NCBI GenBank assembly: GCA_030390025.1
Contig: CM059432.1
Coordinates: 4,030,001 to 4,094,000, forward strand
Direction: 5' to 3'
DNA length: 64,000 nt
DNA from: Squalus acanthias
Lineage: Eukaryota
Below, piece after piece: positions 15,801-38,204 of this stretch (positions are counted from its first letter, which is position 1; every line of letters starts with the position of its first letter). The notes beneath the pieces were generated by a model. That model was not told the origin of the DNA. It saw only the letters and a list, made by a program, of their open reading frames with translations, and searched no databases. A program made the translations under genes and the position numbers.

Positions 15801-16207
15801 ACCTATTTGGTAGCACTTTCACCTCTGAGTCAGAAGGTTGTGGGTTCAAGTCCCACTCCAGAGAATTGAACACAAAATCCAGGCTGGACCAGCCACATAA
15901 ATACTGTGGCAACAAGAGCAGGTCAGAGGCTAGGTATTCTGCGGCGAGTGTCTCACCTCCTGATTCCCCAAAGCCTTTCCACCATCTACAAGGCACAAGC
16001 AAGGAGTGTGATGGAATACTCTCCACTTGCCTGGATGAGTGCAACTCCAATAACACTCAAGAAGCTCGACACTATCCAGGACAAAGCAGCCCGCTTGATT
16101 GGCACCCCATCCACCACCTTAAACATTCACTCCCTCCACCTCCGGCGCACCGTGGCTGTAGTGTGTACCATCTACAAGATGCACTGCAGCAACTCGCCAA
16201 GGCTTCT

Positions 16208-17899
16208 TGTAAGGGTTTTTGTCTCTCAGCCTGTGAGATTCGTGTGGCTCTGTGCAGCCCGGATGCTAGTGCGGGTTTAGGCCTTGTTGCCTGTTCTGGT
16301 CTCCAGCCAGTCTGGGAGCACTAGACACACCTGTGAGTGGTTCGACCCACTCGCCCTTACGGTTCTAGACACTGGACTTAGATGCGAGAGCAGTAATGGA
16401 GATGAAACTCAGGTAGACTCGGTTGAATGGTCCGAAATGGAAAATCTTTATTGCATATTATTTAAGATTACGAAATACATGTCATAAGCACAGATTAATG
16501 ACAGTACAATCTTACACGCAGTTATGTAATTAATTTCAGGAAAACGAGGAACGAACGACACATCGTAAATGGGGGCACACATTACAATTATCCTTAATAC
16601 TTAAAACCCTCCCCTATCAATATCTGTCCTAAGCTAGATTCGTAGGATTCGAGACTCATGCTCACCACTCGTGATAACTCGGAGAATTCCGAAAACTCTG
16701 ATCGGATGTTTTTCACCGCAGCGCCCACGTGTCGATCAGGGGGTCTCCTGGCCCCACTTGTTTACTCGTTTCTGCTCCGGCTAGCAGGCTGGAACGTCTG
16801 CTGTCATGAAGATCTGTGTTGTCCTTGGAGTTCCGACTATACTCAAAAAAGAGTCTTCCTGTGCCCTCACACCGGTTCGATAAAATTCGAAAAATAGTCT
16901 TCCTGTGTCAGTTCTGTAGAACTCAAAGAAGTCTTCCTGGCAAGGAAAATGTCTATTCGACCTACAGGCGCGGTCGGAGCTTACTGACCGTGGCGATAAG
17001 TATGGTCTTCTTCTCTTCTCATCTCATCTCATCTCATCTCATCTCATCTCGGGCCTTCGGTTCCAACACCGTTTACCGACTTATCGGGATGGTGTGCCCG
17101 CTTCAAGGCTTCAGAGCCCAGTTCTACACAGGTCTTCGCGACACGACACGAAGTAGATCCGAGCGGATCATAAAGTTCAACAGTCTTTTGAAAAAAGACA
17201 CGAGGCAAGCAGGAACAAGACGGTGAGTCAAGAGCAGCCACGAGGATAAACACCAGCAAGATAAGAGAAAGATGGACGGTTGGAGCTTGTAATTATAGTG
17301 CAAAATCTTCTGTTTCCCGCCCAACCTTAATGTCTTTCCTTTTGTTAGGGTTTGGCGCTCAAATGTCTTGTATAGGGTGATCTTCGTTTTAATGGGTTTC
17401 GGGGCTACTCGTAAATGTCTGAGTACCTGTTAATATTTCTCCCATTGTTTAATCGGTCGGTGTTCTCCCTGGAGGGGTTTTGGGGCTTCCAAATGTTTTC
17501 TGTAACTACCCGCTAACGGCTCTCTCATCGTAGAGTCGTTGGGATTTTACATATTAATGTCTTTGGATGGGTTCTTGATTACTTGGTACAACAGCCCTCA
17601 TTCGCACCTGGGAGACCGATTTCAGTATTTATGTGTATACTGTGAACCCATGATGTCTCGTGTATTATCTTCAATGTGCTGAGCCTTAATCGATCTTGCA
17701 CAAATGTTTATTGGAACGCCATCTTGTCTGCCTGTCGAAAAGTCTAGAATGTTCCGCCACGAGGCGTGGCGGCCATTTTACAAGCTGCTTGTGTCCACTT
17801 TGAAAACCTGACAGCATTCTGCTGAAATAAAAGCTGTTTGAATGAAACTATGTGTTTTTCTCCTTATTAATAAAATCACGATATATTGCGAATTCTACA
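16208..17899 (-). repeat. 3' LTR (1692 bp)
   Basis: Direct repeat of the 5' LTR with about 10 substitutions seen by eye and one fewer ATCTC unit (17021-17050); preceded by the PPT. Confidence 0.96.
16447..16452 (-). terminator. Polyadenylation signal in the 3' LTR
   Basis: AATAAA about 240 nt from the LTR end; also at 27601-27606 and in the solo LTR at 37982-37987. Confidence 0.6.
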
Positions 17900-17911
17900 G
17901 TCCCTCCTGTT
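17900..17911 (-). promoter_or_regulatory. Polypurine tract
   Basis: AACAGGAGGGAC immediately precedes the TGTAG start of the 3' LTR on the minus strand. Confidence 0.8.
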
Positions 17912-18352
17912 GATGCGAATAACTCCGCTTATCGTATCAAAAATATTGTGGCGAGCAATATTATCTCGATTTTCTCCGAATCCAGAAAATTTAATCCCAT
18001 AACTTAAACTATCTAGGGTCTTTGCGTCGTCCTTATTTCCCAAGAAAATTACATTTTATATCACCGTAGGCATCATTTGCCTTTAAACTTACACCACTTG
18101 TTTTCCTTCCAGGCGCAACCAGGCCGATGCCTCTCGTATCACCTGTATATTCACATTTTTATTTAGGGAAAGGAAAAACAAAACAAAACCAAACAATCAT
18201 TTTTTTTTTTAACTACAACACCATCACCAAAATAATCAACACCAACTCTTAAGACATGTCGAGTTCCAAACGTATTTACAGTCTTTGAAAATCATGAGCG
18301 AGTACAAACTTCCGCGGCGCACGTGGCGAGCGGGAGTGACGCCATTTTCCGA

Positions 18353-20704
18353 TTACACGGTGCTTTCATCGTGCACGCGCACGTAACGTTCTCGCCACTC
18401 TCCCGTGTTTTCGTGTTTGGTGAGGCGTTTGCCTCTCTTACAATGTACGATCAATAGGTACACTACAATAAAAACTTGGCATACGACTAAAATGTGGGAG
18501 GCTATTCTGATCCATGAAGGCACTTCAATATTGGTGAACAGATTCCACCACGGTGGAATTACTATATCCAGAATGTCTGTCCCTATTTCGACAGTTTTCT
18601 GTTCGAGTGCGTAAAAATGTTTCTGTGACACCGCGACGGCTTTGAAAAGCTTGGTGAGGTGTTCAGGGAGAGGGGGAATGAGGTATCCGAAATGCGCGAC
18701 GAATCGCTGCAAGTCGGTGAAATTCTCTTTTACTGTTAGATGAACAGTGGATGGTTCAGGGATTGGGACAATTCGCTGTTGTGCTACTTGAACTTCCGCC
18801 CTGGGTTTGAAACAGAAACTGCTGTCACTCACTGGACACCGGCTACGGTTTCCATGCTGGTAGTGTTGCGCTGCAGTGGTAACACAATATGTTCCACCCC
18901 CGATGTATGCTACCTGCGGAGGCACATGATCTTGTGCCATTGCCTCCATGGTGCAATTCATGGACTTGGCGCCAGCCGTTCTGAACCCGCACTGAGGTGT
19001 TAAAAAGGCATTCAAGTGCTGGGGACACAGTATTATGTGTGCTCCCCTGCCACGACAACCAGAGAGATCTGTACCTGTCATCGTTTGCTCCCAGCGGATG
19101 ACGTAAGGTGGAACCGCTGCATAGCGAATGTGGGCTCCCCCCTGAATGACACCAATGTTCTCTACCCGATACACCGGGGCGGGCTTTGCTGTGTCGCCCA
19201 AAACCGGCATACGTAGTACTATACCCATGATAGTATGGTTTGATCGTCCGCAGTCCACGGGGACTGGGTATGCTTCTGAAGCTAGCCTGAGCTGGCACGG
19301 GCTTAATGCGTTCTGAAAAGGGTGGAGCGCCCGCAGGTGTTTGTTACTTATCCAGGACGGGACCAAACCTTGTTTTAAATCCTCCAAATTACTGCGGCCC
19401 TCGCCCAGTAATCACGCCCCGTAAAGCACGCACACCTCATTCTGCGCAGCTTGATCGGATGCATTCCGATCTTCCCTAATCAGGGCATTTACCGTCTTTG
19501 CATGTTTCTCTAACTCTGCGATAATTTCCTTTAAATGGAGAGTCATGGCTTGGTCCTCGTGTAAACCCGACCCAACCACTTTATTTTCATCTGTTAGAAT
19601 GTCTTTTAATTGTGTCTTTAAACCATTAATCTGGGTCTGTAGCTCCACACTGTCTAGAGCGTTGACCACAGATGTACCCGTGTTAAACGCAGTGAACGCG
19701 TCGTTTACTACACCCCTTCTTTGCCTCTCTACTTGATCCAAAACTTCATGTGGTGCGGTGTACAAACTTGTTTTATCAATTTCCGCGAAATCGAATTCGT
19801 AAAATTGTCTGAACATCTTGGTCAACAGGACCTGATATAACTGTTCCGTCTTTTTGGGGCACCACTCTGGTAACCGCACCTCGGTGAGATTTAAAATCAC
19901 CGAGGCCACCGCGTAATGTACCCCCTGAAATAGTATCTGGTCTGTGGGGACCAGTACCAAACCATTCCCGAGTCCCTTACTAGTTTTAGGGCACCCTTCC
20001 TCTTCAGCTAGAACCACCGGAATCGTGGGCGGGGCTTTGCGTGGGCGCGTAATGAGCTCAGTGGCATTTACCGGGATCGAAGAGTATGGGGCTCCGCACC
20101 CCCTGGTGCTTGCATCCCACCTCATCCCCTGTCCGTTATCCTGCCATTGATTAATGAAAAATATGGAGATGCCTTTGGGGCAAGCGTACTTTGACCCCCA
20201 CATGCATACATAAATTCCCTCATCCGGTTCCCACCATTTGTCCCAACAGACTCTCACTTGTCCGTTTGTCCCCGTAATTGTCCGATGGGTATTATTACCC
20301 AGTCGTTCCCACTCGACCGAAGAGTTCCTCATGTTTTTGCTCAGCTTTCGCAGCCACCACCATCGGCTCAATGGGACATTCCCATTACAAGTCAAACAAA
20401 TCCGTTTGCCGACGGTGACGCTGATCCTGGGTGCGATGATCCTTACTTTGGGGCACATTAAAGAAGTCTCTTGGTAGGCAAACCCCGATGTGCTAGAATA
20501 CTCCGTTGAGTTCGTTCCCAGCCATCCTGGCCACCTTCCCTTGTGGAAATAGGTGGTGGTCTCCTCAGCCTCCCGCCTTCCGGTCCCATCCACCGCGATG
20601 GGGGCCGTGTCCCCGGAGCATCCAAACACCACGACATCCTTGGTGCGGCCTCGATAGGCCAATCCACATCCGATTGCCGCGAGCAATACTAGAATTCGTT
20701 CCAT
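18353..20704 (-). pseudogene. env: Env class I fusion glycoprotein (F-protein-like), 783 codons with one internal TGA at 19412-19414
   Basis: ORFs 19412-20821 and 18353-19387 share a frame. Signal peptide MERILVLLAAIGCGLA; furin site RQRR (19715-19726); then GVVNDAFTAFNTGTSVVNAL, a heptad repeat, a Cys-rich beta region, TM segment ILVVCQVFIVVYLLIV and a basic stop-transfer KRGKR. Confidence 0.88.
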
Positions 20705-20717
20705 CCTTCCTTGGTTC

Positions 20718-20740
20718 CTGTGATCAGATAGAATGAGGTA
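20718..20740 (-). promoter_or_regulatory. Candidate env splice acceptor
   Basis: TACCTCATTCTATCTGATCACAG|G lies 13 nt upstream of the env ATG (AGGATGG). Confidence 0.55.
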
Positions 20741-21021
20741 GCCAGCCTCGCAAGAGTCTCTGGCTTTTGTGAAGGGTGAGCGGATCCCCTGACCTCGCCT
20801 CACGTAAACTTCAATGTTCACTAAATAAACTTTAACTAGACCTATCTCTAACTCCCATCATTTTACCATTTTTTGTTAAAATTAAACTACAAACTTAACC
20901 TTATTTAAAACTATAAACTTATAACCTTAAACTTAGAAACTTAGAAACTTATAAACTTAGAAACTTATCCTAAACTTAAACTTATTACTGTACAGCACCG
21001 CCCGTTCCCAGGGCGGCCCCT

Positions 21022-24000
21022 TTAAATTCTGAGAAGGCTGCTGCGAGCTCTTCCCGACGGTGGGAGGGCACTGACCCCGTCCTTTGATCTGCCGCAGCCT
21101 GTGGCTGCACTGACCCCTTCCTTTGATCTGCCGCAGCCTGTTGCTGCTGCGATGGGACTGGGCCCTACTTGGGCTGCCTTAACCTTGAGTCTACGCCTTG
21201 GGGCAGTCTGGGGCCATGACCACATCTTCCTGGGCTGGGGTGCTCTACTTGACCTACGAGGAGTTGTCGGGGGCAGGAATCCCAGGACCGACGGACCGGG
21301 TTTCGAGACTTTCACCGGGACGACCTGTGGTCCCACCACAGTCGCTGGCTCCGCCTCCCCTGACTCCGCCTCCCTGACCTCGGGACTTGCAGCTTGTGGC
21401 ACCGCCCTGCTCGGCCCAGCAGGCGGCCCTTCCCTCGCAATCCCTACCTCCCCCGAGGGCAGGACGTTCAAGGCGGGCGGCTCGGGCTCTGAGGTTTCCG
21501 CCGTCACGCCCTGTGGTCTCACAGCGGCTGGCTCCGCCTCCCCTAGCTCCTCCCTCCTGTGTTCGGGACCTGCAGCCTCGGTGTCCACCCTGTGTGGATC
21601 TCTATCTGCAGCCCCTGTCCTCCCTATACCTGAATCGGGGGCGACCCTTGCGTTCCCCGATTCCCACTCGTCCTCATCACTATCCTCATCTGACTCGAGT
21701 TCCGGGAACTCTCCCTCATCTGACTCCCAACCCCACAAAAATGTTTCACAATTCACCAGGATGTCTCCTCCCCTGATGCAAGCTGCTTTGCCTGCCTGTG
21801 TGCCTTGTGGTCCTACCTGGGGCTGCGAGTCCCCACTCGCAGGTTTTGCCCCTGTGGTTTTCCCTTGTGCACCTGGCTTGTACAATTTGCACTGGTTTAC
21901 GTGGAACCACTTAGTGCGCCAAGGTATCTTTACGGCGTATACCATGGGACTCGCCTTATCTACAATGTTGTAGGGTCCCATATACAGTGGTTCCAGACTC
22001 CCTACTCTGGCGTAGTTTCTGACCATAACCTGGTCTCCTACTTCCCACTCCCGCGTTTTGCGGGGTTCCAGCAACAGGCGATTGCCCTGATGCTGCCTTC
22101 CCATGTTCCCAGCCGCCTGCTCATAAACCTGCTTCAGGCGCTCCAAGAGGGTCTGGGCGAACTTGTCCCTGCTTATCTCTTGGAGCTGACCCTCAGTGAG
22201 CACCGGCGCTAGCACATGGGTGGGGGTTCGCATGAGCCTCCCAGTCATCACCTCGTGCGGGGAGTACCCCGTACTTTTTGACTGACTGGCCCGGACCCCC
22301 ATGAGGACTAAAGGCAGAACTTCCGCCCATTTTTGGGGCGAGTTCCTAGTCTCTTTCCTCAGTTTCTCCTTCAGGGTCCGGTTCATGCGTTCAACAATCC
22401 CGGATGACTGGGGATTGTGTGCTACGTGCCACTTCCCTTCAATGCCCAAAAGCATGAGGGTGTTCTGCATCACCTGGCCGGTGAAATGACTCCCCTGGTC
22501 CGACTCCACAAAACAGGGGAGTCCCCACCGCGAGAACACTTCCCTGACCAAGATTTTTGCAGTACCCAGTGCCGTAGCTGTTCGACAGGGGAAGGCTTCC
22601 ACCCATTTGGAAAACACATCCACCAAGACGAGGCAGTATTTATAGCCTCCCTGGGTGGTGGGCAGGGGCCCTATATAGTCGATCTGTATCGACTGCCATG
22701 GTCCCTCTACCCTTCTTACGTGCCCCATGGGCACTTTCCTTTTCTGGGGGTCTGGGTTGTTTGCAGCGCACACGAGACAGTTTGCACAGAACTCGCGGAC
22801 CTGTTCCCTGAGCCCTGGCCACCATCCCGCTTGCTCTACCCGTTGCCAGGTAACCTCGGGCCCGGGGTGCCCTGCCCCTGGTCCCTCGTGAGCCAACTGG
22901 AGGAATTCCCTCCTGTGCTGCTGCGGCACAACCCACTGCTCCTCGCGGAACAGCATGCCTTCCCTAACGGAGAGGGTTGCCGTACTGTACGGACCCTCTA
23001 CTTGCTTCCCCTCAGCAATGGTTTTTAGGACTGCTTTTAGGGCGGGATCCTGGGTTTGGACGGTCTTAAGGTCTAGGGGCAATGCTACCCTGGAGTTCCC
23101 GGGATTCCCGTCCCTGCCTTGGATCGCTGCCATGGGTCTGGTCCCATAGGGGTCCCAGAAAATGCCGTTGCGGGCACCTTCCCTGGCTAGCGCATCCGCC
23201 TGCTGGTTGCCCTCCCCACGGGGCTCTGTGGAGGAGTGAGCCTTCACCTTATGGATGAAAATCTCCCCTTCCTCCCCTACTGCTGCTAGGATCTTTTCCA
23301 GCAAGGGCTTCACCGTTAAAGGTCGCCCGTCCGCGGAGGTGTATCCACGGCGGGACCAAATGGCCAGGTATTCCGTACACGAATTACATGTGAACATACT
23401 GTCCGAGCAAATCGTGTATGGGGTTGGGAAAATGTCTGGGTGGGTAACAACGTACACCACTGCAGACAGCTCAGCCTGCTGCGCGCTCATGGTGCTTGGG
23501 AGCTTGATCGCCAGGGCAAGGTTTGCCGCAGGGTCATAAACTCCACACCCTGTGAGTCGTTCGCCAGCAGATACTGTGCTAGAACCATCAACATAAATCT
23601 CGCGCCCAGTGGGATGTATCCCGGCCCGCAAACCTATGTTGACGTCCCACACCCCTTCCACCGAACATCGGTGGGCTGTACCGGGGTATACCAAATTGGC
23701 CGCAAGCCTGGGCTCGCAAAGACCTTTTACTCTAAGATCCAGCTGGGAAAGAAGAAGGGTCCAGCGCGCAATACGCACGCTGCTTACGGTCCCATCTTTA
23801 ATCCTCCCATCTAAAAGCATCTTAGTTGGTGTGTGCTGGGTGAGGAGAGTGATGGGAGAGAGCCCTGTGAAGATCGCTGATCTTTTCACAGCCCAATGCG
23901 TGGCTAAAAGGTGCCTTTCGCAATTGGAGAAACTCCTCTCCACATCCGTTAACACCCTGGACGAATAGACAACCGGCCTCAGCTTGCCGTGACGCTCTTG

Positions 24001-25548
24001 GAGCAGCACAGCGCTCAAGCTGTCCCCGCTGGCAGCTACCTCCAGGAAAAACTCCTTCCCCCCATCTATGGCCCCTAAAGCTGGCGCGGTCTGCAGATCC
24101 CTTTTTAACTTCTCGAAGGCTGCTTGGCAGCCCTCGTCCCAAGACCGCTCCACTCCCTTATGGAGGAGTCGGAGGAGCGGCGCCGCTGTGGCCGCATAGT
24201 CTTCGATAAAATCCCTGCAGTAACCGGTCAGTCCCAAGAAGGACCTCACACCCCTTATGGTGTTGGGAATCGGTAACTCTTGCACCGACTCCCTCCTAGC
24301 CTTATCTATGGCTCTTTCCCCAGCGCGAATGGTCAGCCCCAGGAATTTTACTTCCTGCTGACCGATACGTGCTTTCTTAGGATTTACTTTAAAACCCTTT
24401 CTCGCTAGCAGCTCCAATAACTCGGCCAGCAGTGGTCCATGCTCCTCCCTTGAGTCCGTAAATAGGAGCAAATCATCCACGTACTGCACTATCTGATTGG
24501 GCTGACTAAACTCCTTTAAACTTCCTGCCATACACTGATGGAAAATACTGGGGCTGTTGTGGAAACCCTGTGGCAGACAGTTCCATGTGTACTGTTGTCC
24601 TTTGAAAGTAAAGGCAAACTTGTACTGGTCCTCTCGCCGCAGCGGGATGGACCAAAAACCGTTCGAGATATCCAGCACCGTGAACGTGGTCGCGGACGCT
24701 GGGATACTCCCTATTAGGTCAGCAACTGCTGCTACCGTGGGCGCGCAGGCGGGAATGTTACTGTTAAGGACTCTGTAGTCCACCGTGGCCCTCCACGAAT
24801 TATCCGGCTTCCTAACCGGCCATAATGGGGAGTTCACGTGTGTGGCTATTGGCCTCAACACGCCCTGCTGCACCAAGGAGGACATTGCTGTCTCCATATC
24901 GGGTTCTGCTTCTTTGGGGAAGTTATACTGTTTTTGGGGCCGGGTCATGGGGTCCCCATCTACGCTGACCTCAAACCCGGTAACCCTCCCACAATCGTGC
25001 TTGTGGGTTGCAAACGCGTGCATATTATCTGACACGTACGCTTGCATGTCCGTTGGGACATCTGCGACCATGAGCCCAAGGTCGTAGCCTCCGGATGGCT
25101 GCATGGTACACAGGACCCCTGTTTCTTCCTCCCCCGGAATTACCACTACCTCGCCTTCTTCAATCTTAGCCCCCCAGAGACAGTGATTTCTGAGGTCCAC
25201 GAGGATCCCGTGTCCTGATAGGAGATCGGACCCGAGGATACCTCTTCCACCCCCCTCCTGCCATTCCATCAGTATGCACTTCCACTTGATGTGAAGTGCT
25301 CCCAAACGAATGGATAGCGGAAGGGAGAACGCGCCAGCCTGTTCTTTTCCCGTGAACCCCGCTAATGTGAATGGGACCTTGGTAGATAGCGGCGAGTCAA
25401 AAGGGCTATCTGTATGAATCACGGTGCAAGAAGCTCCCGTGTCCAACAAATAACTGCCCTTCTGTTTCTCTACCTCCATTTCCACCAGGGGTCGCTTCCA
25501 CGCATCATAGCTGAGCGGACACAGGTAGACGGGCTGCGCGGGCTCTAG
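21022..25548 (-). CDS. pol: Pol (protease, RT, RNase H-like tether, RNase H, integrase, C-terminal extension), 1508 codons in frame with gag
   Basis: Protease RPLV...LLDTGA (DTG 25435-25443). RT LDISNGF/LPQGF/YVDD (24472-24483). RNase H YVDGSS/AELSA/SDS/HKVKAH/QADALA. IN HHCC, IDYIG/SDQG/VERMN and GPY. No stop between the gag TGA and the listed GTG start at 25485. Confidence 0.95.
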   Translation of the reverse strand, partial: LEPAQPVYLCPLSYDAWKRPLVEMEVEKQKGSYLLDTGASCTVIHTDSPFDSPLSTKVPFTLAGFTGKEQAGAFSLPLSIRLGALHIKWKCILMEWQEGGGRGILGSDLLSGHGILVDLRNHCLWGAKIEEGEVVVIPGEEETGVLCTMQPSGGYDLGLMVADVPTDMQAYVSDNMHAFATHKHDCGRVTGFEVSVDGDPMTRPQKQYNFPKEAEPDMETAMSSLVQQGVLRPIATHVNSPLWPVRKPDNSWRATVDYRVLNSNIPACAPTVAAVADLIGSIPASATTFTVLDISNGFWSIPLRREDQYKFAFTFKGQQYTWNCLPQGFHNSPSIFHQCMAGSLKEFSQPNQIVQYVDDLLLFTDSREEHGPLLAELLELLARKGFKVNPKKARIGQQEVKFLGLTIRAGERAIDKARRESVQELPIPNTIRGVRSFLGLTGYCRDFIEDYAATAAPLLRLLHKGVERSWDEGCQAAFEKLKRDLQTAPALGAIDGGKEFFLEVAASGDSLSAVLLQERHGKLRPVVYSSRVLTDVERSFSNCERHLLATHWAVKRSAIFTGLSPITLLTQHTPTKMLLDGRIKDGTVSSVRIARWTLLLSQLDLRVKGLCEPRLAANLVYPGTAHRCSVEGVWDVNIGLRAGIHPTGREIYVDGSSTVSAGERLTGCGVYDPAANLALAIKLPSTMSAQQAELSAVVYVVTHPDIFPTPYTICSDSMFTCNSCTEYLAIWSRRGYTSADGRPLTVKPLLEKILAAVGEEGEIFIHKVKAHSSTEPRGEGNQQADALAREGARNGIFWDPYGTRPMAAIQGRDGNPGNSRVALPLDLKTVQTQDPALKAVLKTIAEGKQVEGPYSTATLSVREGMLFREEQWVVPQQHRREFLQLAHEGPGAGHPGPEVTWQRVEQAGWWPGLREQVREFCANCLVCAANNPDPQKRKVPMGHVRRVEGPWQSIQIDYIGPLPTTQGGYKYCLVLVDVFSKWVEAFPCRTATALGTAKILVREVFSRWGLPCFVESDQGSHFTGQVMQNTLMLLGIEGKWHVAHNPQSSGIVERMNRTLKEKLRKETRNSPQKWAEVLPLVLMGVRASQSKSTGYSPHEVMTGRLMRTPTHVLAPVLTEGQLQEISRDKFAQTLLERLKQVYEQAAGNMGRQHQGNRLLLEPRKTREWEVGDQVMVRNYARVGSLEPLYMGPYNIVDKASPMVYAVKIPWRTKWFHVNQCKLYKPGAQGKTTGAKPASGDSQPQVGPQGTQAGKAACIRGGDILVNCETFLWGWESDEGEFPELESDEDSDEDEWESGNARVAPDSGIGRTGAADRDPHRVDTEAAGPEHRREELGEAEPAAVRPQGVTAETSEPEPPALNVLPSGEVGIAREGPPAGPSRAVPQAASPEVREAESGEAEPATVVGPQVVPVKVSKPGPSVLGFLPPTTPRRSSRAPQPRKMWSWPQTAPRRRLKVKAAQVGPSPIAAATGCGRSKEGVSAATGCGRSKDGVSALPPSGRARSSLLRI

Positions 25549-27357
25549 TCATTGGGTATGGTTAGACGGGCCTGCGGCACCTACGGGGCCGGTCGCAACC
25601 GCCACCTTTCCATGTGCACTCATAAAGTTGCGCATGGCTCCCAACACTGTTTCGAGGTCGTCGGGAGGGGTGGGTGCACTAGCTTCCCTAACAGAGACAG
25701 GCATCTGGGCTCGGGCTGCGGGATTTTTATCCCTGGAATCCTTCCAAGGGTTCCTGCAGTTCTTGCGCCAGTGCCCTGTCCTCCCACACCCGTAACAAGC
25801 ATTACTTGCCTGCGGGGCGCGGTTACCCTCCTGATGCCACTCCTTTTGAGCCGGGGCTGCGGGTTGTACCTCATGTACTTTTCCCTTAAGGGGACGTGTT
25901 CCCATACCCCTTATATTGCGGTATCCTACCGTGAGTCGATTTAAGACCGACTCTTCCGTAATGTTGGGGTCAGTGGGATCAAACCACGCTTTTGCCTGCT
26001 CTCTGACGGCTGGCAAACTGTTGGCTACTATACACCTGAGCCAATGAGTTAAACCGACGCCGTCCACAGCGTCGCGCTCCGGCGCACCTGGACAGCTGCG
26101 CTGATATACTGGCCACAGCCTGTTGGCAAAAACCTTCGGGGGTTCTCCCTCCATCTGCACTGTCTGTCCCACTCTAACAAACGGACCTTCATCGTCCGTC
26201 CCCAACACTTCTAGGACCTCATTTTTTAATGCCTCATAGGTCTTGGTTCCCCTCTTGCTCTCGTCCGAGAGACACTGAAGGATTGAACTGCCTAACGAAA
26301 ATAACAGCATTTTTGCTGTTTCCCCATCGTCGCAGCCGTTAATGGCTGCGGTTTGCTCAACTTCTCTAAAATGTACGGAAGGGTCGTCTGACTCGGTCAG
26401 CTTCCGTACGTGATTTATCATAACTCTCAGCTGGTGTGAGCTGTGAGGCAACACAAGCTGGTTGAGGAGAACCCCTGGTTCCTCCCCACCGTTTCTGTTT
26501 GGGCCCCTTTTTATACCCGTAACTGGACACAACGGTCCCTTTTCCACTTCTTCCTCAGTGGGCTCTTTCGTTTCTTCTACTACTTCCTCCCTTACCCAGG
26601 TTTCCGAATAGCTGGGTGGCGCGGAGGGCGTAGTGGCTAATACTTCCTTTGCTTTACTTGGTGGGAATTTCTGAGACTCCTCATCTACTAGCGGCTGGTG
26701 TGCTGACGGACTGATAAGGCACACCATGCCGTGCGCTTTGTTCACGGCCCTTTTAAGGTGTTCTATCTCCTTTTGGCAGACGCTATGATCGGCCCCCTGA
26801 AATTTATCCTCAAGGGCCATCTTATATGCCGCCCTAACCCCCGTTAAGCTCTCTTCCTGGGCTCTTATTTGGGCAGCTTGGCGGGCACATCGTTCCTTTA
26901 GTCTGCCCTCACTTAACTTTGCCTCAGTGACCTGACACTCGAGGTCATCTATTTTTGCTTTATGGTGACTGGTGATTTCCTGGCGTTCTCGGTGCAGCGC
27001 ACTTAAATTCCTAATGAGCAACTCCCCTCCAGAGACCTTCTCATCCATTTCCTCCTCTAAATGCCTGATCCGAGCAGTTTGCGCTGTAATGACCTGGTTT
27101 GAAATCTGGACCTGCCTTTTGTAACACATTAACCAGACTGCTTTCTTGACTGTATTTTTATGTTCCTTACTATCTATCCACCTCTCGGCTGCCTCTAGTG
27201 GACACTTATCCGCTAACAGGTCACTTATCCATTTCTTAGTTAGATTTACCTTTCCGAACACATAATCTGCTATCTTTTCCTGCATAACATTTCGTACATT
27301 CACACCAAAGTCTAACACACTACCCTCTCGCTGCCAGTGTCCTGCCGCGGTCGCCAT
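25549..27357 (-). CDS. gag: Gag polyprotein, 602 aa
   Basis: Intact ORF with ATG in AAAATGG context; coiled-coil-like N-terminal half; PSAPPSY late-domain motif (26608-26628); CCHC knuckle CYGCGRTGHWRKNC (25756-25797); ends TGA. Confidence 0.92.
   Translation of the reverse strand: MATAAGHWQREGSVLDFGVNVRNVMQEKIADYVFGKVNLTKKWISDLLADKCPLEAAERWIDSKEHKNTVKKAVWLMCYKRQVQISNQVITAQTARIRHLEEEMDEKVSGGELLIRNLSALHRERQEITSHHKAKIDDLECQVTEAKLSEGRLKERCARQAAQIRAQEESLTGVRAAYKMALEDKFQGADHSVCQKEIEHLKRAVNKAHGMVCLISPSAHQPLVDEESQKFPPSKAKEVLATTPSAPPSYSETWVREEVVEETKEPTEEEVEKGPLCPVTGIKRGPNRNGGEEPGVLLNQLVLPHSSHQLRVMINHVRKLTESDDPSVHFREVEQTAAINGCDDGETAKMLLFSLGSSILQCLSDESKRGTKTYEALKNEVLEVLGTDDEGPFVRVGQTVQMEGEPPKVFANRLWPVYQRSCPGAPERDAVDGVGLTHWLRCIVANSLPAVREQAKAWFDPTDPNITEESVLNRLTVGYRNIRGMGTRPLKGKVHEVQPAAPAQKEWHQEGNRAPQASNACYGCGRTGHWRKNCRNPWKDSRDKNPAARAQMPVSVREASAPTPPDDLETVLGAMRNFMSAHGKVAVATGPVGAAGPSNHTQ
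27339..27356 (-). promoter_or_regulatory. Primer-binding site, tRNA-Arg(UCG)
   Basis: TGGCGACCGCGGCAGGAC is the 18-nt complement of the vertebrate tRNA-Arg(UCG) 3' end ...GTCCTGCCGCGGTCG-CCA (tRNA sequence recalled, not searched); it lies 5 nt downstream of the 5' LTR. Confidence 0.85.
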
Positions 27358-27361
27358 TTTC

Positions 27362-29058
27362 TGTAAGGGTTTTTGTCTCTCAGCCTGTGAGATTCGTGTG
27401 GCTCTGTGCAGCCCGGATGCTAGTGCGGGTTTAGGCCTTGTTGCCTGTTCTGGTCTCCAGCCAGTCTGGGAGCACTAGACACACCTGTGAGTGGTTCGAC
27501 CCACTCGCCCTTACGGTTCTAGACACTGGACTTAGATGCGAGAGCAGTAATGGAGATGAAACTCAGGTAGACTCGGTTGAATGGTCCGAAATGGAAAATC
27601 TTTATTGCATATTATTTAAGATTACGAAATACATGTCATAAGCACAGATTAATGACAGTACAATCTTACACGCAGTTATGTAATTAATTTCAGGGAAACG
27701 AGGAACGAACGACACATCGTAAATGGGGGCACACATTACAATTATCCTTAATACTTAAAACCCTCCCCTATCAATATCTGTCCTAAGCTAGATTCGTAGG
27801 ATTCGAGACTCATGCTCACCACTCGTGATAACTCGGAGAATTCCGAAAACTCTGATCGGATGTTTTTCACCGCAGCGCCCACGTGTCGATCAGGGGGTCT
27901 CCTGGCCCCACTTGTTTACTCGTTTCTGCTCCGGCTAGCAGGCTGGAACGTCTGCTGTCATGAAGATCTGTGTTGTCCTCGGAGTTCCGACTATACTCAA
28001 AAAAGAGTCTTCCTGTGCCCTCACACCGGTTCGATAAAATTCGAAAAATAGTCTTCCTGTGTCAGTTTTGTAGAACTCAAAGAAGTCTTCCTGGCAAGGA
28101 AAATGTCTATTCGACCTACAGGCGCGGTCGGAGCTTACTGACCGTGGCGATAAGTATGGTCTTCTTCTCTTCTCATCTCATCTCATCTCATCTCATCTCA
28201 TCTCATCTCGGGCCTTCGGTTCCAACACCGTTTACCGACTTATCGGGATGGTGTGCCCGCTTCAAGGCTTCAGAGCCCAGTTCTACACAGGTCTTCGCGA
28301 CACGACACGAAGTAGATCCGAGCGGATCATAAAGTTCAACAGTCTTTTGAAAAAAGACACGAGGCAAGCAGGAACAAGACGGCGAGTCAAGAGCAGCCAC
28401 GAGGATAAACACCAGCAAGATAAGAGAAAGATGGACGGTTGGAGCTTGTAATTATAGTGCAAAATCTTCTGTTTCCCGCCCAACCTTAATGTCTTTCCTT
28501 TTGTTAGGGTTTGGCGCTCAAATGTCTTGTATAGGGTGATCTTCGTTTTAATGGGTTTCGGGGCTACTCGTAAATGTCTGAGTACCTGTTAATATTTCTC
28601 CCATTGTTTAATCGGTCGGTGTTCTCCCTGGAGGGGTTTTGGGGCTTCCAAATGTTTTCTGTAACTACCCGCTAACGGCTCTCTCATCGTAGAGTCGTTG
28701 GGATTTTACATATTAATGTCTTTGGATGGGTTCTTGATTACTTGGTACAACAGCCCTCATTCGCACCTGGGAGACCGATTTCAGTATTTATGTGTATACT
28801 GTGAACCCATGATGTCTCGTGTATTATCTTCAATGTGCTGAGTCTTAATCGATCTTGCACAAATGTTTATTGGAACGCCATCTTGTCTGCCTGTCGAAAA
28901 GTCTAGAATGTTCTGCCACGAGGCGTGGCGGCCATTTTACAAGCTGCTTGTGTCCACTTTGAAAACCTGACAGCATTCTGCTGAAATAAAAGCTGTTTGA
29001 ACGAAACTATTTCTTTTTCTCCTTATTAATAAAATCGCGATATATTGCGAATTCTACA
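27362..29058 (-). repeat. 5' LTR (1697 bp)
   Basis: Minus-strand termini TGTAGAATT...CCCTTACA; direct repeat of 16208-17899; followed by the PBS; (ATCTC)7 at 28175-28209. Confidence 0.96.
28449..28481 (-). promoter_or_regulatory. Candidate LTR core promoter (GC box plus TATA-like)
   Basis: GGGCGG (28476-28481) then TATAATTA (28449-28456); same arrangement conserved in the diverged solo LTR (34222-34227, 34248-34252). Confidence 0.5.
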
Positions 29059-29769
29059 TTCTTCGGCAGCATGTCCCAAACCTGCGACCTCTTCCACCTA
29101 GAAGGACAAGGGCAGCAGGCGCATGGGAACACCACCACCTCCAAGTTCCCCTCCAAGTCACACACCATCCTGACTTGGAAATATATCGGCCGATCCTTCA
29201 TCATCACTGGGTCAAAATCCTGGAACTCCCTCCCTAACAGCACTGTGGGAGTACCTTCACCACACGGACTGCAGCGGTTCAAGAAGGTGGCTCACCACCA
29301 CCTTCGCAAGGGCAATTAGGGACGGGCAGTAAATGCTGGCCTTGCTAGCAATGCCCACATCCCATAAACGAATAAAAAAAACACTCCAGTGCCGTACTGA
29401 GGGAGTGCTGCACTGTCGGAGGTGCCGTCTTTCAGATGAGACGTTAAACCGAGGCCCCGTCCGCTCTCCCAGGTGGACGCAAACAATCCCAGGGCCACTA
29501 TTTCAAAGAAGAGCAGCGATTCTGGGCCAATGTTTGTCCCTCAACCAGCACCACTAAAACAGATTATCGGTGCATTATCTCATTGCTGTCTGTGGGAGCT
29601 TACTGGCTGCTGCGGTTCTTGCATTACAACGGTGACCGCACTTCAAAACGTACTTCATTGGCTGTAAAGAGCTTGGGGACGTCCTGAGGTTGTGAAAGGT
29701 GCTGTGTGGGTGCAAGTTTTTCTCTTTTGTTTTCTTTTACCAAACAGCTGTTAGCCAGAGCAGTACAAT

Positions 29770-33645: not shown

Positions 33646-36600
33646 TGTAGAATTCGCAAAATTATCGCGATTTTATAAAAATAAGAAGGAGACATAAAGT
33701 TTCGTATAAACAGCTTTATTTCAGCAGAATGCTGTCAGGTTTCAAAACGGACACAAACAGCCTGTAAAATGGCCGCCACGCCTCGTGGCAGAAAGTTCTA
33801 GACTTTCAGCAGGCAGACAAGATGGCGCTTCAATAAACATTTCAGCAAGATCGAACAGGACTCAGCACATTTGAGATAATGACAAGACATGATGGGTTTG
33901 CATTTTAAACATAAATACTGAAATCGGTCTCCCAGGTGCAAACAAGGGCTATTGTACTGAGCGATCAAGGACCCATCCAAAGACATTAATATGCAAAATC
34001 CCCACGACTCTACGATGAGAGAGCCGTTTGCGGGTACTTACAGCAAGCATTTGGAAGCCCCAAAACCCCTCCAGGGAGACTACTAGCCGGTTCCACAATG
34101 GGAGAAATATTAACGGGTACTCAGACAGTTACATGTATCACCGAAACCCATTAAAGACGGAGATCACCCCATACAAGAAGTTTGAGCGCCAAAACCCTGA
34201 CAAAAGATAGACATTAAGATTGGGCGGGAAAAGAGGAACTACAGCACTATAACTGTAAAGTACAACCGTCCATCCTTCTCTTGCTGCTTTGACTCGCTGG
34301 AAGGCTGCTGAACTTTTATTCTCTTGCCTACCGGCTCTGGACTCTGATCCGCTAGGATCAACCTCGTGGCTTGCCACGAAGATCTGTGGAGAACTGGGCT
34401 GTGAGGCCTGGAAGCGGGCGCACCATCCCGAGAAGTCGGTAAACGGTGTTGGAACCGAAGGCCCAAGAGGAGATGAGATGAGATGAGATGAGAAGAGAAG
34501 AAGACGACATACTAAATCATAAGTCTAAAAGGACAAAGGATGTTAATAAAACAAGCCTAAAGGCTCTGTGTCTTAATGCAAGGAGTATCCGTAATAAGGT
34601 GGATGAATTGACTGTGCAAATAGATGTTAACGGATACGATGTGATTGGGATTACAGAGACGTGGCTCCAGAACAATCAAGGCTGGGAACTGAACATCCAG
34701 GGGTATTCAACATTCAGAAAGGATAGAATAAAAGGAAAAGGGGGTGGGGTAGCATTGCTGGTTAAAGAGGAGATTAATGCAATAGCTAGGAAGGACATCA
34801 GCTTGGAGTATGTGGAATCAATATGGGTTGAGCTGCAGAACACCAAAGGGCAGAAAACGTTAGTGGGAGTTGTGTACAGACCTCCAAACAGCAGTAGTGA
34901 GGTGGGGGAGGGTATGAAACAGGAAATCAGAGGTGCGTGCAAAAAAGGCACGGCAGTTATCATGGGTGACTTTAATATGCATATAGATTGGGCTACTCAA
35001 ACTGGAAGCAATACGGTGGAGGAGGATTTCCTGGAGTGTTTAAGGGATGGTTTCCTAAACCAATATGTTGAGGAACCAACTCGAGGGGAGGCCATCCTGG
35101 ACTGGGTGTTGTGTAATGAGGAGGGACTAATCAGCAATCTTGTGGTACGAGGCCCCCTGGGGAAGAGTGACCATAGTATGGTGGAGTTCTACATTAGGAT
35201 GGAGAAGGAAACAGTTAAGTCAGAGACCATGGTCCAGAACTTAAATAAGGGCAACTTTGAGGGTATGAGGCGTGAATTGGCGAGGTTAAATTGGCAAGCG
35301 ATATTTAAGGGGCTATCAGTGGAAGGGCAATGGCAGACATTTAGAGATCGCATGGATGAACTACAACAATTGTACATCCCGGTCTGGCGTAAAAATAAAA
35401 AAGGGAAGGTGACTCAACCATGGCTAACAAGGGAAATCAGGGATAGTATTAAAACCAAGGAAGTTGCATACAAATTGGCCAGAAGTAGCAGCAAACCCGG
35501 GGACTGGGAGAACTTCAAAACTCAGCAGAGGAGGACGAAGGGTTTGATTAGGGCAGGGAAAATAAAATATGAAGGAAGCTTGCAGAGAACATTAAAATGG
35601 ACTGCAAAAGCTTCTATAAATATGTAAAAAGAAAGAGGTTAGTAAAAACAAACGTAGGTCCCCTGCAGTCGGAAACAGGGGAAGTCGTAATGGGGAACAA
35701 GGAAATGGCAGATCAATTGAACAAGTACTTTGGTTCGGTGTTTACTGTGGATGACACACACAACCTGCCGGAAATAAAAGGGGTCAGAGGATCTGGTAAG
35801 AGGGAGGAGCTGAGGGAAATCCTTATTAGTCGGGAAAAGGTATTGGGGAAATTGATGGGACTGAAGGCTGAAAAATCCCCGGGGCCTGATGGTCTACATC
35901 CCAGAGTACTTAAGGAGGTGGCCTTGGAAATAGTGGATGCATTGACGATCATTTTCCAACATTCCTTAGACTCTGGATCAGTTCCGATGGAGTGGAGGGT
36001 GGCCAATGTAACCCCTCTTTTTAAAAAAGGAGGGAGGGAGAAAGCAGGGAATTATAGACCGGTCAGCCTGACATCGGTCGTGGGTAAAATGATGGAAGCA
36101 ATTATTAAAGATGTCATAACAGACCATTTGGAAAGTGGCGACATGATAGGTCCAAGTCAGCATGGATTTGTGAAAGGGAAATCATGCTTGACAAATCTTC
36201 TGGAATTTTTTGAGGATGTTTCCAATAGGGTGGACAGGGGGGAACCAGTAGATGTGGTGTATTTGGACTTTCAGAAGGCCTTCGACAAGGTCCCACACAA
36301 GAGATTGGTGAGCAAAGTTAAAGCACATGGGATTGGGGGTAATGTGTTGACGTGGATTGAGAACTGGTTGGCACACAGGAAACAAAGAGTAGGAGTAAAT
36401 GGGTACTTTTCAGAATGGCAGGCAGTGACCAGCGGGGTACCGCAGGGTTCGGTGCTGGGACCCCAGCTGTTTACATTATATATTAATGATTTGGACGAAG
36501 GGATTAAATGTAATATCTCCAAATTTGCGGATGACACTAAATTGGGAGGCAGTGTGAACAATGAGGAGGATGCTAGGATTCTACAGAGTGACTTGGACAG

Positions 36601-38204
36601 GTTGGGTGAATGGGCAAATGTATGGCAGATGAAGTACAATGTGGATAAATGTGAGGTTATCCACTTTGGTGGTAAAAATAGAGAGGCGGACTATTACCTG
36701 AATGGTGGCAGATTAGGGAAAGGGGACGTGCAACGAGACCTGGGCGTCATGGTACATCAGTCACTGAAGGTGGGAATGCAAGTGCAGCAGGCAGTCAAGA
36801 AAGCAAACGGAATGATGGCCTTCATAGCAAGGGGATTTGAGTACAGGAGTAGGGAGGTGATGCTACAGTTGTACAGGGCCTTGGTGAGGCCACACCTGGA
36901 GTATTGTGCGCAGTTTTGGTCTCCTAACTTAAGGAAGGACATTCTTGCTATTGAGGGAGTGCAGCGAAGGTTCACTAGATTGATTCCTGGGATGGCCGGA
37001 CTGACATATCAAGAAAGATTGGGTCAACTGAACTTGTATCCTCTGGAGTTCAGAAGAATGAGGGGGGATCTTATAGAGACATTTAAAATCCTGACTGGTT
37101 TAGACAAATTAGATGCGGGCAGAATGTTCCCAATGGTAGGATTAAGGGGAAGCCATTTAGGACTGAGCTGAGGAGGAACTTCTTCACCCAGAGAGTGGTG
37201 AATCTATGGAATTCTCTTCCACAGAAGGTTGTTGAGGCCAGTTCGCTAAATATATTCAAAAGGGAGTTAGATATAACACTCACAACTAAGGGGATCAAGG
37301 GGTATGGCGAGAAAGCAGGAATGGGGTACTGAGGTAGCATGTTCAGCCATGAACGCATTGAATGGCGGTGCAGGCTCGAAGGACCGAATGGTCTACTCCT
37401 GTACCTATTTTCTATGTTTCTATGTTTCTATGACAATACGTATCGCCACGGTCAGTAAGCCCCGACCGCGCCTGTAAGTCGAATAAACACTTCTTCGAAT
37501 TTTATCGGCTACTCCACAACTGGCCTAGGAAGACCCTTCTTCGAGTTCTATCGAACCGGTGTAGGGCACAGGAAGACTCTTTTTTTGAGTAGTATCAGAA
37601 CTCCGAGGGCAACACAGATCTTCATGACAGCAGACGGTCCAGCCTGCTAGCCGGAGCAGAAACGAGTAAACAAGTGGGGTACAGAGACCCCTGATCAACA
37701 CGTGGATAGTCAGGCGCTGCGGTAAAAACATCCGAGCAGAGTTTCGGAATTCTCCGAGTTATCACGAGTGGTGAGCATGAGTCTCGATCCTACAAATCTA
37801 GATTAGGACAGGTATTGATAGGGGAGGGTTTAAGTTTTAAGGATAATTATAATGTGTGTCCCCTTTTACGATGTGTCGTGCGCTCCTCGTTTCCCTAAAA
37901 TTAGTTTCATAACTGTGTGTAAGATTGTACTGTCGTTAATCTGTGCTTATGACATGTATCTCGTAATCTTGAATAATATGCAATAAAGATTTTCCATTTC
38001 GCACTATTCAACCGGGTCTACCTGAGTCTTCTCTGCATTATTGCTCTCGCACCTAAGTCCAGTGTCAGAACTGTAAGGGCGAGTGGGTCGAACCACTCAC
38101 AGGTGTCTAGTATTACCAGGCTGGCTGGAGACCAGAACAGGCAACAAGGCCTAACCCCGCACTAGCACCCAGGCTAAGCACAGAGCCGCAGGTCACCCCT
38201 TACA
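33646..38204 (+). mobile_element. Solo LTR of a related, diverged ERV subfamily, interrupted by a CR1
   Basis: TGTAGAATTCGC...CCCCTTACA termini; TSD GTCT (33642-33645, 38205-38208); colinear with the reverse complement of the provirus LTR. Confidence 0.92.
34513..37431 (+). mobile_element. 5'-truncated CR1 LINE (ORF2 endonuclease and RT, frameshifted) nested in the solo LTR
   Basis: APE motifs (CLNARS, ITETWL, VYRPP, GDFN, SDH); RT (YLDFQKAFD, FADD); 3' (TTTCTATG)n tail; imperfect duplication GACATAC/GACAATAC. Confidence 0.93.

Follow-up and report, generated by a model that had tools for sequence, protein, structure and literature searches.

This paper describes a provirus on the minus strand of a 64,000-nucleotide stretch of Squalus acanthias DNA (assembly GCA_030390025.1, contig CM059432.1, positions 4,030,001 to 4,094,000; hereafter the window), and in particular the in-frame UGA-CUAG that separates its gag and pro-pol genes. 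The provirus extends from 29058 to 16208, is 12.9 kb in length, and carries 1.7-kb long terminal repeats (LTRs); its features are collected in Table 1.

The gag/pro-pol junction

The minus-strand sequence of the junction is ...ACC CAA TGA CTA GAG CCC..., with the TGA at 25551-25549. The frame upstream of this codon is open from 27474 and encodes, from the ATG at 27357, a Gag protein of 602 amino acids, and past the TGA it continues without interruption for 1508 codons, to 21022, such that a readthrough product would comprise 602+1+1508 = 2111 amino acids. A preliminary description of this DNA had given the same junction letters, an uninterrupted frame into the protease, and the same product length, all of which were borne out. 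The Pfam RVP match begins at pro-pol residue 17 (profile position 2), while the first GTG and the first ATG downstream of the stop correspond to residues 22 and 24, respectively; initiation at either codon would therefore remove the first protease strand, in agreement with the earlier remark that the GTG start costs the protease its N-terminal RPL. The protease needs the codons that directly follow the stop.

The TGACTAG heptamer as such occurs at chance level in the window (6 occurrences versus 7.2 expected), and its non-chance aspect is its conservation and its placement at the Gag/protease boundary. The catalytic Asp of the protease lies 35 codons from the stop, compared to 26 in six gammaretrovirus loci and 31 in the snakehead-type locus L001. 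Moreover, none of the 210 gag-pol codons that are one change away from UGA is followed by CUAG, and CUA followed by G is found at 10 of the 2111 codons.

The stop in related sequences

One search with Gag gave only the skate protein P0125. A HMMER search yielded 27 matches, of which the two close full-length ones, P0153 (46%) and P0155 (38%), were aligned with three full-length proteins of the skate Rhinoraja (P0125, P0127, and P0128), excluding the frameshifted P0126, fragments, and distant matches; identities to the window Gag range over 38-54%. All five end in the same alignment column as the window Gag, and the three skate proteins are encoded at separate loci. Judged from these protein ends, the position of the stop is conserved in the lineage, and the sense codon that the preliminary description had named as an argument against readthrough was not encountered among the close relatives. 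Fused Gag-Pol proteins were likewise not detected: no Gag match was found among 6441 candidate proteins of 1055-3010 amino acids, which is a weak test, and no full-length fused close relative was present among 120 listed of the 251 Pol matches.

The junction region was partly present in 20 of the 22 sequencing runs listed, from 10 studies, and the contigs of four of these runs (one run per organism label) were compared with it. All 30 bins of the compared region were covered in each of the four runs, and no variants were found in 25497-25559 among the 40 best-supported of 190 variant rows. Among the 24 of 68 contig break-off points that were examined, matches broke off behind 25552-25558 in three of the four runs (X1, X11, and X8) and before 25517 in three as well (X11, X8, and X17). 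Some contigs in runs from four organism labels fit only approximately 25517-25552 and continue with unlike letters beyond it. The break-offs at both sides therefore suggest that divergent subfamilies have about 36 nt from the stop in common, their Gag ends being unlike.

Viral contigs yielded no DNA of close relatives, and a further search returned only distant retroviruses (12 loci). Metagenome loci contained no close relatives either in the 80 of 292 considered, the best two of which carry a TAG junction, and a motif scan for TGACTAG...DTG gave 120 viral-contig loci, none of which had a Pol match.

Readthrough and competing explanations

Type II readthrough sites are recognized by CUAG directly after the UGA and by an in-frame extension that is conserved, both of which the junction has. 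The signal is real and conserved in the lineage, and is probably programmed; on sequence grounds we consider it very likely that the in-frame UGA-CUAG serves as a programmed Gag/Gag-Pol switch that is read through to the 2111-amino acid product. Ribosomes on the unspliced RNA would mostly terminate at the UGA and release Gag, and a few percent would insert a residue at this codon and continue to the full Gag-Pro-Pol, with the CUAG acting to weaken termination. The signal probably consists mostly of primary sequence, i.e., the A at -1, the UGA, the CUAG, and the next few codons. The leakiness of UGA-CUAG is known from mammalian cells, and the sections of a 2026 review of animal-virus readthrough drawn on here (PMC13517186) report readthrough of at least about 1.3% for UGACUAG in 23 human genes and list UGA-CUA-GAC for ONNV and MDH1. 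For the provirus, we infer both the occurrence of readthrough and its rate. The 7-bp pairing of CCGCGCA with UGCGUGG that had been proposed earlier just downstream of the stop can be written but is unsupported by folding: its predicted pair probability does not exceed 0.25 when 60 nt are folded and drops to about 0 once the fold spans 100 nt or more, and it is absent from the minimum free energy structure of 152 nt.

Several observations weigh against readthrough at a conserved UGA-CUAG. The Gag proteins locate the stop but leave its codon type and context unseen. Retention of TGACTAG in relatives is deduced from the ends of matches, the matched letters being unseen, and the shared block of about 36 nt also encodes the protease N-terminus, so that protein constraint could account for part of its conservation. 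In P0008, a gene model from the coelacanth (43% within Pol), a Gag-like part is fused in frame to Pol, and 10 headers in the examined part of the lokiretrovirus supplement (PMC7947760) denote a single 'gag-pol gene'; the stop is therefore not universal among more distant kin. Finally, the gag-UGA-pol junction of Candida Tca2 alone directed no readthrough in yeast, according to the portion of PMC2194720 used here.

Pol could alternatively be made separately in the style of foamy viruses, by means of a spliced mRNA or an internal start, which we regard as unlikely. The acceptor would be either the TAG within TGACTAG or a CAG whose last base is 25511, and translation would start at Met24, which has a good Kozak context (GAA ATG G). 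YAG trinucleotides are indeed present at 25545 and at 25511, where the preceding stretch is 70% pyrimidine, and CTAAC, which resembles the branch-point consensus, lies approximately 20 nt upstream of the YAG at 25545. Moreover, the relative P0005 has a Met at the position equivalent to Met24, and the TGACTAG-G of lokiretrovirus sequences is compatible with a YAG acceptor followed by G. The junction YAG is weak, however, as 132 of the 469 YAG sites in the provirus are equally pyrimidine-rich, and a start at Met24 would drop the RPL strand that snakehead-type, MLV-type, and coelacanth proteases retain, two of them with Val at the Met position. The contig break-offs, which were seen in DNA runs, fall just 5' of the stop and not at an AG, and separate expression of Pol would impose no match between the gag and pol frames.

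Even less probable, in our view, is a bypass of the UGA for which the CUAG does not suffice and which depends on RNA structure farther away or on some other element, as in alphaviruses or Candida Tca2. Compared with shuffled sequences, the 152 nt that begin at the stop fold slightly more stably (z -2.06, 6 of 200), so that a longer structure may exist, and a long hairpin is predicted from about +23 to +82; downstream structures are also termed 'conditionally required' for UGACUA sites in the consulted part of PMC13517186. On the other hand, the 100 nt from +9 give a z of only -0.47, more stable folds being found in 43 of 63 gag-pol windows, and the divergent subfamilies lose similarity past about +35. 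Rfam, SECIS families included, had no matches in 16000-29300, which also leaves selenocysteine insertion at the UGA without support.

Decay had to be considered because the env-like gene of the same copy contains an in-frame TGA (19414-19412), which is followed by TTA and not by CUAG. Post-insertion damage of a single gag-pol frame, of which about 0.7 nonsense changes would be expected at the LTR divergence of 0.0059 (our arithmetic, assuming that 4% of substitutions are nonsense), is nevertheless largely refuted and scarcely credible, in view of the stop shared by all five full-length relatives (three of them at the separate skate loci), its exact placement at the boundary used by other retroviruses, and, as a weak test, the lack of fused forms described above.

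Known readthrough sites, classification, and proviral features

Readthrough of the gag stop is an established strategy, that of a UGA stop has already been inferred for several fish and frog retroviruses, and the qualification as an unusual retroviral strategy in the preliminary description was overstated, since such readthrough is used or inferred in gamma-, epsilon-, snakehead, and ERV-L-like retroviruses; what stands of its proposal is the programmed, conserved in-frame UGA-CUAG. The element shares with MoMLV and other gammaretroviruses an in-frame stop after the zinc knuckle, approximately 26-35 codons before the protease DTG, and a single Gag-Pro-Pol frame, whereas MoMLV employs UAG-G with an 8-nt spacer and an H-type pseudoknot, and the element has UGA-CUAG without a supported structure and falls in a separate clade in both trees described below. 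UGA gag stops have been published for SSSV (UGAAGA), ZFERV (UGACGA), and RMERV (UGAAGU) (PMC13517186, section 4.1.2), as well as for XtERV-S (PMC8278194, in the part consulted), the junction of which reads TGA-CAG by eye. In all four a UGA separates gag from pro-pol in one frame, and readthrough is inferred, but none has CUAG; SSSV groups with the gamma- and epsilonretroviruses in the reverse transcriptase (RT) trees, from which the other three were absent. SnRV and other retroviruses outside classes I and II (the clade Huo grade) resemble the element in a coiled-coil-rich Gag with one zinc knuckle (a weak phmmer match) and in the readthrough layout, whereas the SnRV stop context is UAG-GGC, and the label 'SnRV-like' is unproven for the element.

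Lokiretroviruses have a dual RNase H in common with the element, as well as relatives annotated as NYNRIN-like, but the element lacks their long protease-to-RT insert and its RT lies outside the loki-type sequence P0022. The part of the lokiretrovirus supplement examined contains 17 text matches to TGACTAG: four in frame just before the protease, two out of frame at the pol start of Loki-Lch (not counted, as they lie outside the pol frame), and 11 elsewhere. The four in-frame sites were located by eye in the consensus sequences Ofa, Cne, Pyo, and Sau, and these TGA stops close the gag genes that the authors annotated in Ofa, Pyo, and Sau; the Loki-Bsp junction reads TGA-CTAA by eye, the junctions of Dcl, Lro, and Tfu were left out, and Ape lacks the region. 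The pol genes of Ofa, Cne, Pyo, Sau, and Bsp, annotated separately from gag, were given downstream near-cognate starts, and in four of these five a Val-Tyr-Leu/Phe motif follows soon after the stop, as in the element. No statement on readthrough and no remark on TGA-CTAG was found in the examined main text and supplement of PMC7947760. In the available sequence file, a bullfrog ERV-L-like provirus carries TGA-CTA-GAG where XtERV-S has its stop (by eye); the file comprises two or more proviruses, this was the one match in it, and the copy is defective.

Outside retroviruses, the same heptamer occurs in the vertebrate UGA-CUAG genes OPRL1 and MDH1, in which readthrough extends host proteins, whereas in the element it would set the Gag:Pol ratio; AQP4 is a further such gene according to the preliminary description. 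The alphavirus opal sites (SINV UGA-CUA-A and ONNV UGA-CUA-GAC) extend nsP3 and add a long stem-loop. The MDH1 and ONNV motif, as listed in the review sections used, is equal to the element's site in 8 of 9 bases. These sections give UAG-GGA, UAG-GAU, UAG-GGC, UGA-AGA, UGA-CGA, and UGA-AGU as retroviral contexts, and cite UGACUAG for host genes and alphavirus-type sites only (PMC13517186). No report of a retroviral UGA-CUAG site was found in the literature searched, the coverage of which did not extend to most subscription journals, the original SnRV, SSSV, and MuERV-L papers, Repbase reports, or the junctions of mammalian ERV-L; as far as this literature goes, the CUAG context is the only new aspect for retroviruses.

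It is tempting, although rather doubtful, to view UGA-CUA(G) as an old and overlooked Gag-Pol switch across the deepest retroviral branches, i.e., the shark-type lineage, a lokiretrovirus subclade, and frog ERV-L-like elements, that may represent the ancestral setting of the Gag:Pol ratio. If so, the structure-independent leaky context of vertebrate hosts would have been used, and UAG-pseudoknots, frameshifts, and spliced pol would have come later. Convergence is as plausible as ancestry, since many lokiretrovirus sequences are annotated as a single frame and close frog relatives differ (UGA-CAG). The recurrence in lokiretroviruses and ERV-L-like elements makes an ancestral Gag-Pol mechanism testable by a survey of junctions. 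A retroviral family that conserves UGA-CUAG would moreover tie viral to host readthrough grammar and supply natural variant sets for reporter assays.

The best Pol relatives include one match at 82%, as well as frog and coelacanth proteins labelled NYNRIN-like at 40-46%. Phylogenetic position was assessed with a FastTree RT tree of 49 sequences and an IQ-TREE RT tree of 31 sequences and 384 columns (supports from the raw tree). FastTree groups the element and its Pol relatives with the snakehead-type locus L001 at 0.80, whereas IQ-TREE places L001 outside the element's lineage, with an unresolved base, and splits this lineage from P0022 and gypsy RTs with an ultrafast bootstrap (UFBoot) of 100. 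The class I (gamma/epsilon) clade excludes the element at 0.99 in FastTree and UFBoot 100, as does the foamy clade at UFBoot 100. Judged by these trees, the RT lies within the retroviral clade, and among the sampled sequences this endogenous element takes a basal position outside classes I and II, neither foamy nor loki. Its family is probably one of cartilaginous fishes, because the named Gag relatives come from skate and catshark and the flanking repeats resemble those of sharks.

Assignment to the gamma- or epsilonretroviruses is excluded by the RT trees, and the stop is UGA-CUAG instead of UAG, with no supported stem. For the Spumaretrovirinae, besides the RT position, a CCHC knuckle is present and no ATG precedes the protease start. 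A lokiretrovirus, our first guess, is ruled out by both RT trees, a result that rests on the single sequence P0022, which was judged by eye to be loki-type on the basis of its long insert and the start of its protease. Repbase ERV3/ERV4 elements were rejected on the 4-bp target-site duplication and the CCHC knuckle, the criteria in the part of PMC4299795 used (Table 1 of that paper) being a 5-bp duplication and a Gag that lacks a zinc finger; the sampled RT sequences included none recognized as ERV3/ERV4. A metagenome retrovirus (L014:1280-1282, also L013), in which TAG-CGC separates gag from pol and env has a transmembrane part of the CX6CC type, belongs to the same basal RT grade. The near-identical frog and coelacanth 'NYNRIN-like' proteins P0006-P0009 and P0129-P0142 are the Pol proteins of related retroviral families; most of these gene models start at a Met within the protease, which serves as a warning for the annotation of this group.

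Table 1. Features of the provirus and its gag/pro-pol junction in the window.
Feature	Position	Strand	Evidence
5' LTR, 1697 nt, TGTAG...CTTACA	27362..29058	-	99.1% to 3' LTR
Putative primer-binding site starting TGG, overlaps gag start codon	27339..27356	-	position just inside 5' LTR
gag, 602 aa + stop: coiled-coil-like N-terminal part, probable capsid-like middle, one CCHC zinc knuckle	25549..27357	-	zf-CCHC E 0.006, below curated cut-off; 54% identity over 600 aa to skate protein P0125
UGA-CUAG candidate readthrough site (CAA UGA CUA GAG CCC)	25545..25551	-	sequence; Gag of relatives ends in same column
Block of about 36 nt, from base before stop to protease-frame codon 11; only part of the neighbourhood matched by some divergent-subfamily contigs	25517..25552	-	contig break-offs
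Earlier proposed 7-bp stem (arms 25541-25535 and 25504-25498)	25498..25541	-	not supported
pro-pol, 1508 aa: protease (DTG at residue 36), RT (YVDD), tether, RNase H, integrase, low-complexity tail of about 280 aa	21022..25548	-	domain matches; first ATG at residue 24
env-like gene: start resembling a signal peptide, weak Ig-like domain, furin-like site RQRR, hydrophobic segment at the C-terminus	18353..20704	-	sequence features
Putative polypurine tract: purine-rich tract before 3' LTR	17900..17911	-	sequence
3' LTR, 1692 nt	16208..17899	-	LTR comparison
4-bp target-site duplication TTCT	16204..16207, again at 29059-29062	+	sequence

Over 1692 aligned sites the two LTRs show 10 substitutions, besides a single 5-nt indel (Kimura two-parameter distance 0.0059), which would correspond to an insertion age of about 1.3 to 13 million years and a fairly young provirus when the two rates used in PMC4422223, in the part consulted, are applied. 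The gag ATG overlaps the primer-binding site and lies 5 nt from the 5' LTR (27339-27361, minus strand), leaving nearly no leader; a packaging signal would therefore need a place in the LTR or gag. The skate Gag starts likewise (MAT). The putative primer-binding site may be tRNA-Ser-like. In Pol, the tether and second RNase H are represented by PF17917/PF17919, followed by PF00075, and the in-frame tail after the integrase (21022-21900, minus strand) is acidic, proline-rich, and of low complexity over approximately 280 amino acids. A 126-nt duplication lies inside this integrase tail (21268-21393 and 21454-21576, 71%).

In the env-like protein, the N-terminal Ig-like domain is weak (Ig_3 E 0.31) and precedes a fusion-protein-like half; the gene model of the frog relative P0006 likewise ends in an Ig-like segment. 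The fusion-protein-like half is collinear with the snakehead-type env over approximately 280 amino acids, with similarity that is not significant (z 0.6). Domain searches gave no match to PF00523 (paramyxo/pneumovirus F), and a PDB sequence search nothing significant. Atlas leads, at 0.91 but of low recognition, pointed to the clusters Baculo_F and Monjiviricetes-fusion, the single-sequence model had a predicted local distance difference test score of 33, and comparison with the last large open reading frames of seven reference viruses gave scattered scores that were left uninterpreted.

A second copy of the internal region of the provirus was not found within the window. Older inverted fragments of the same LTR family are present at 37432-38190 and 33646-34504 (87% and 81% identity), and the family has therefore inserted in this region more than once. 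Finally, a 32-nt tandem repeat of approximately six copies or more, unrelated to the provirus, is located at 1430-1685.

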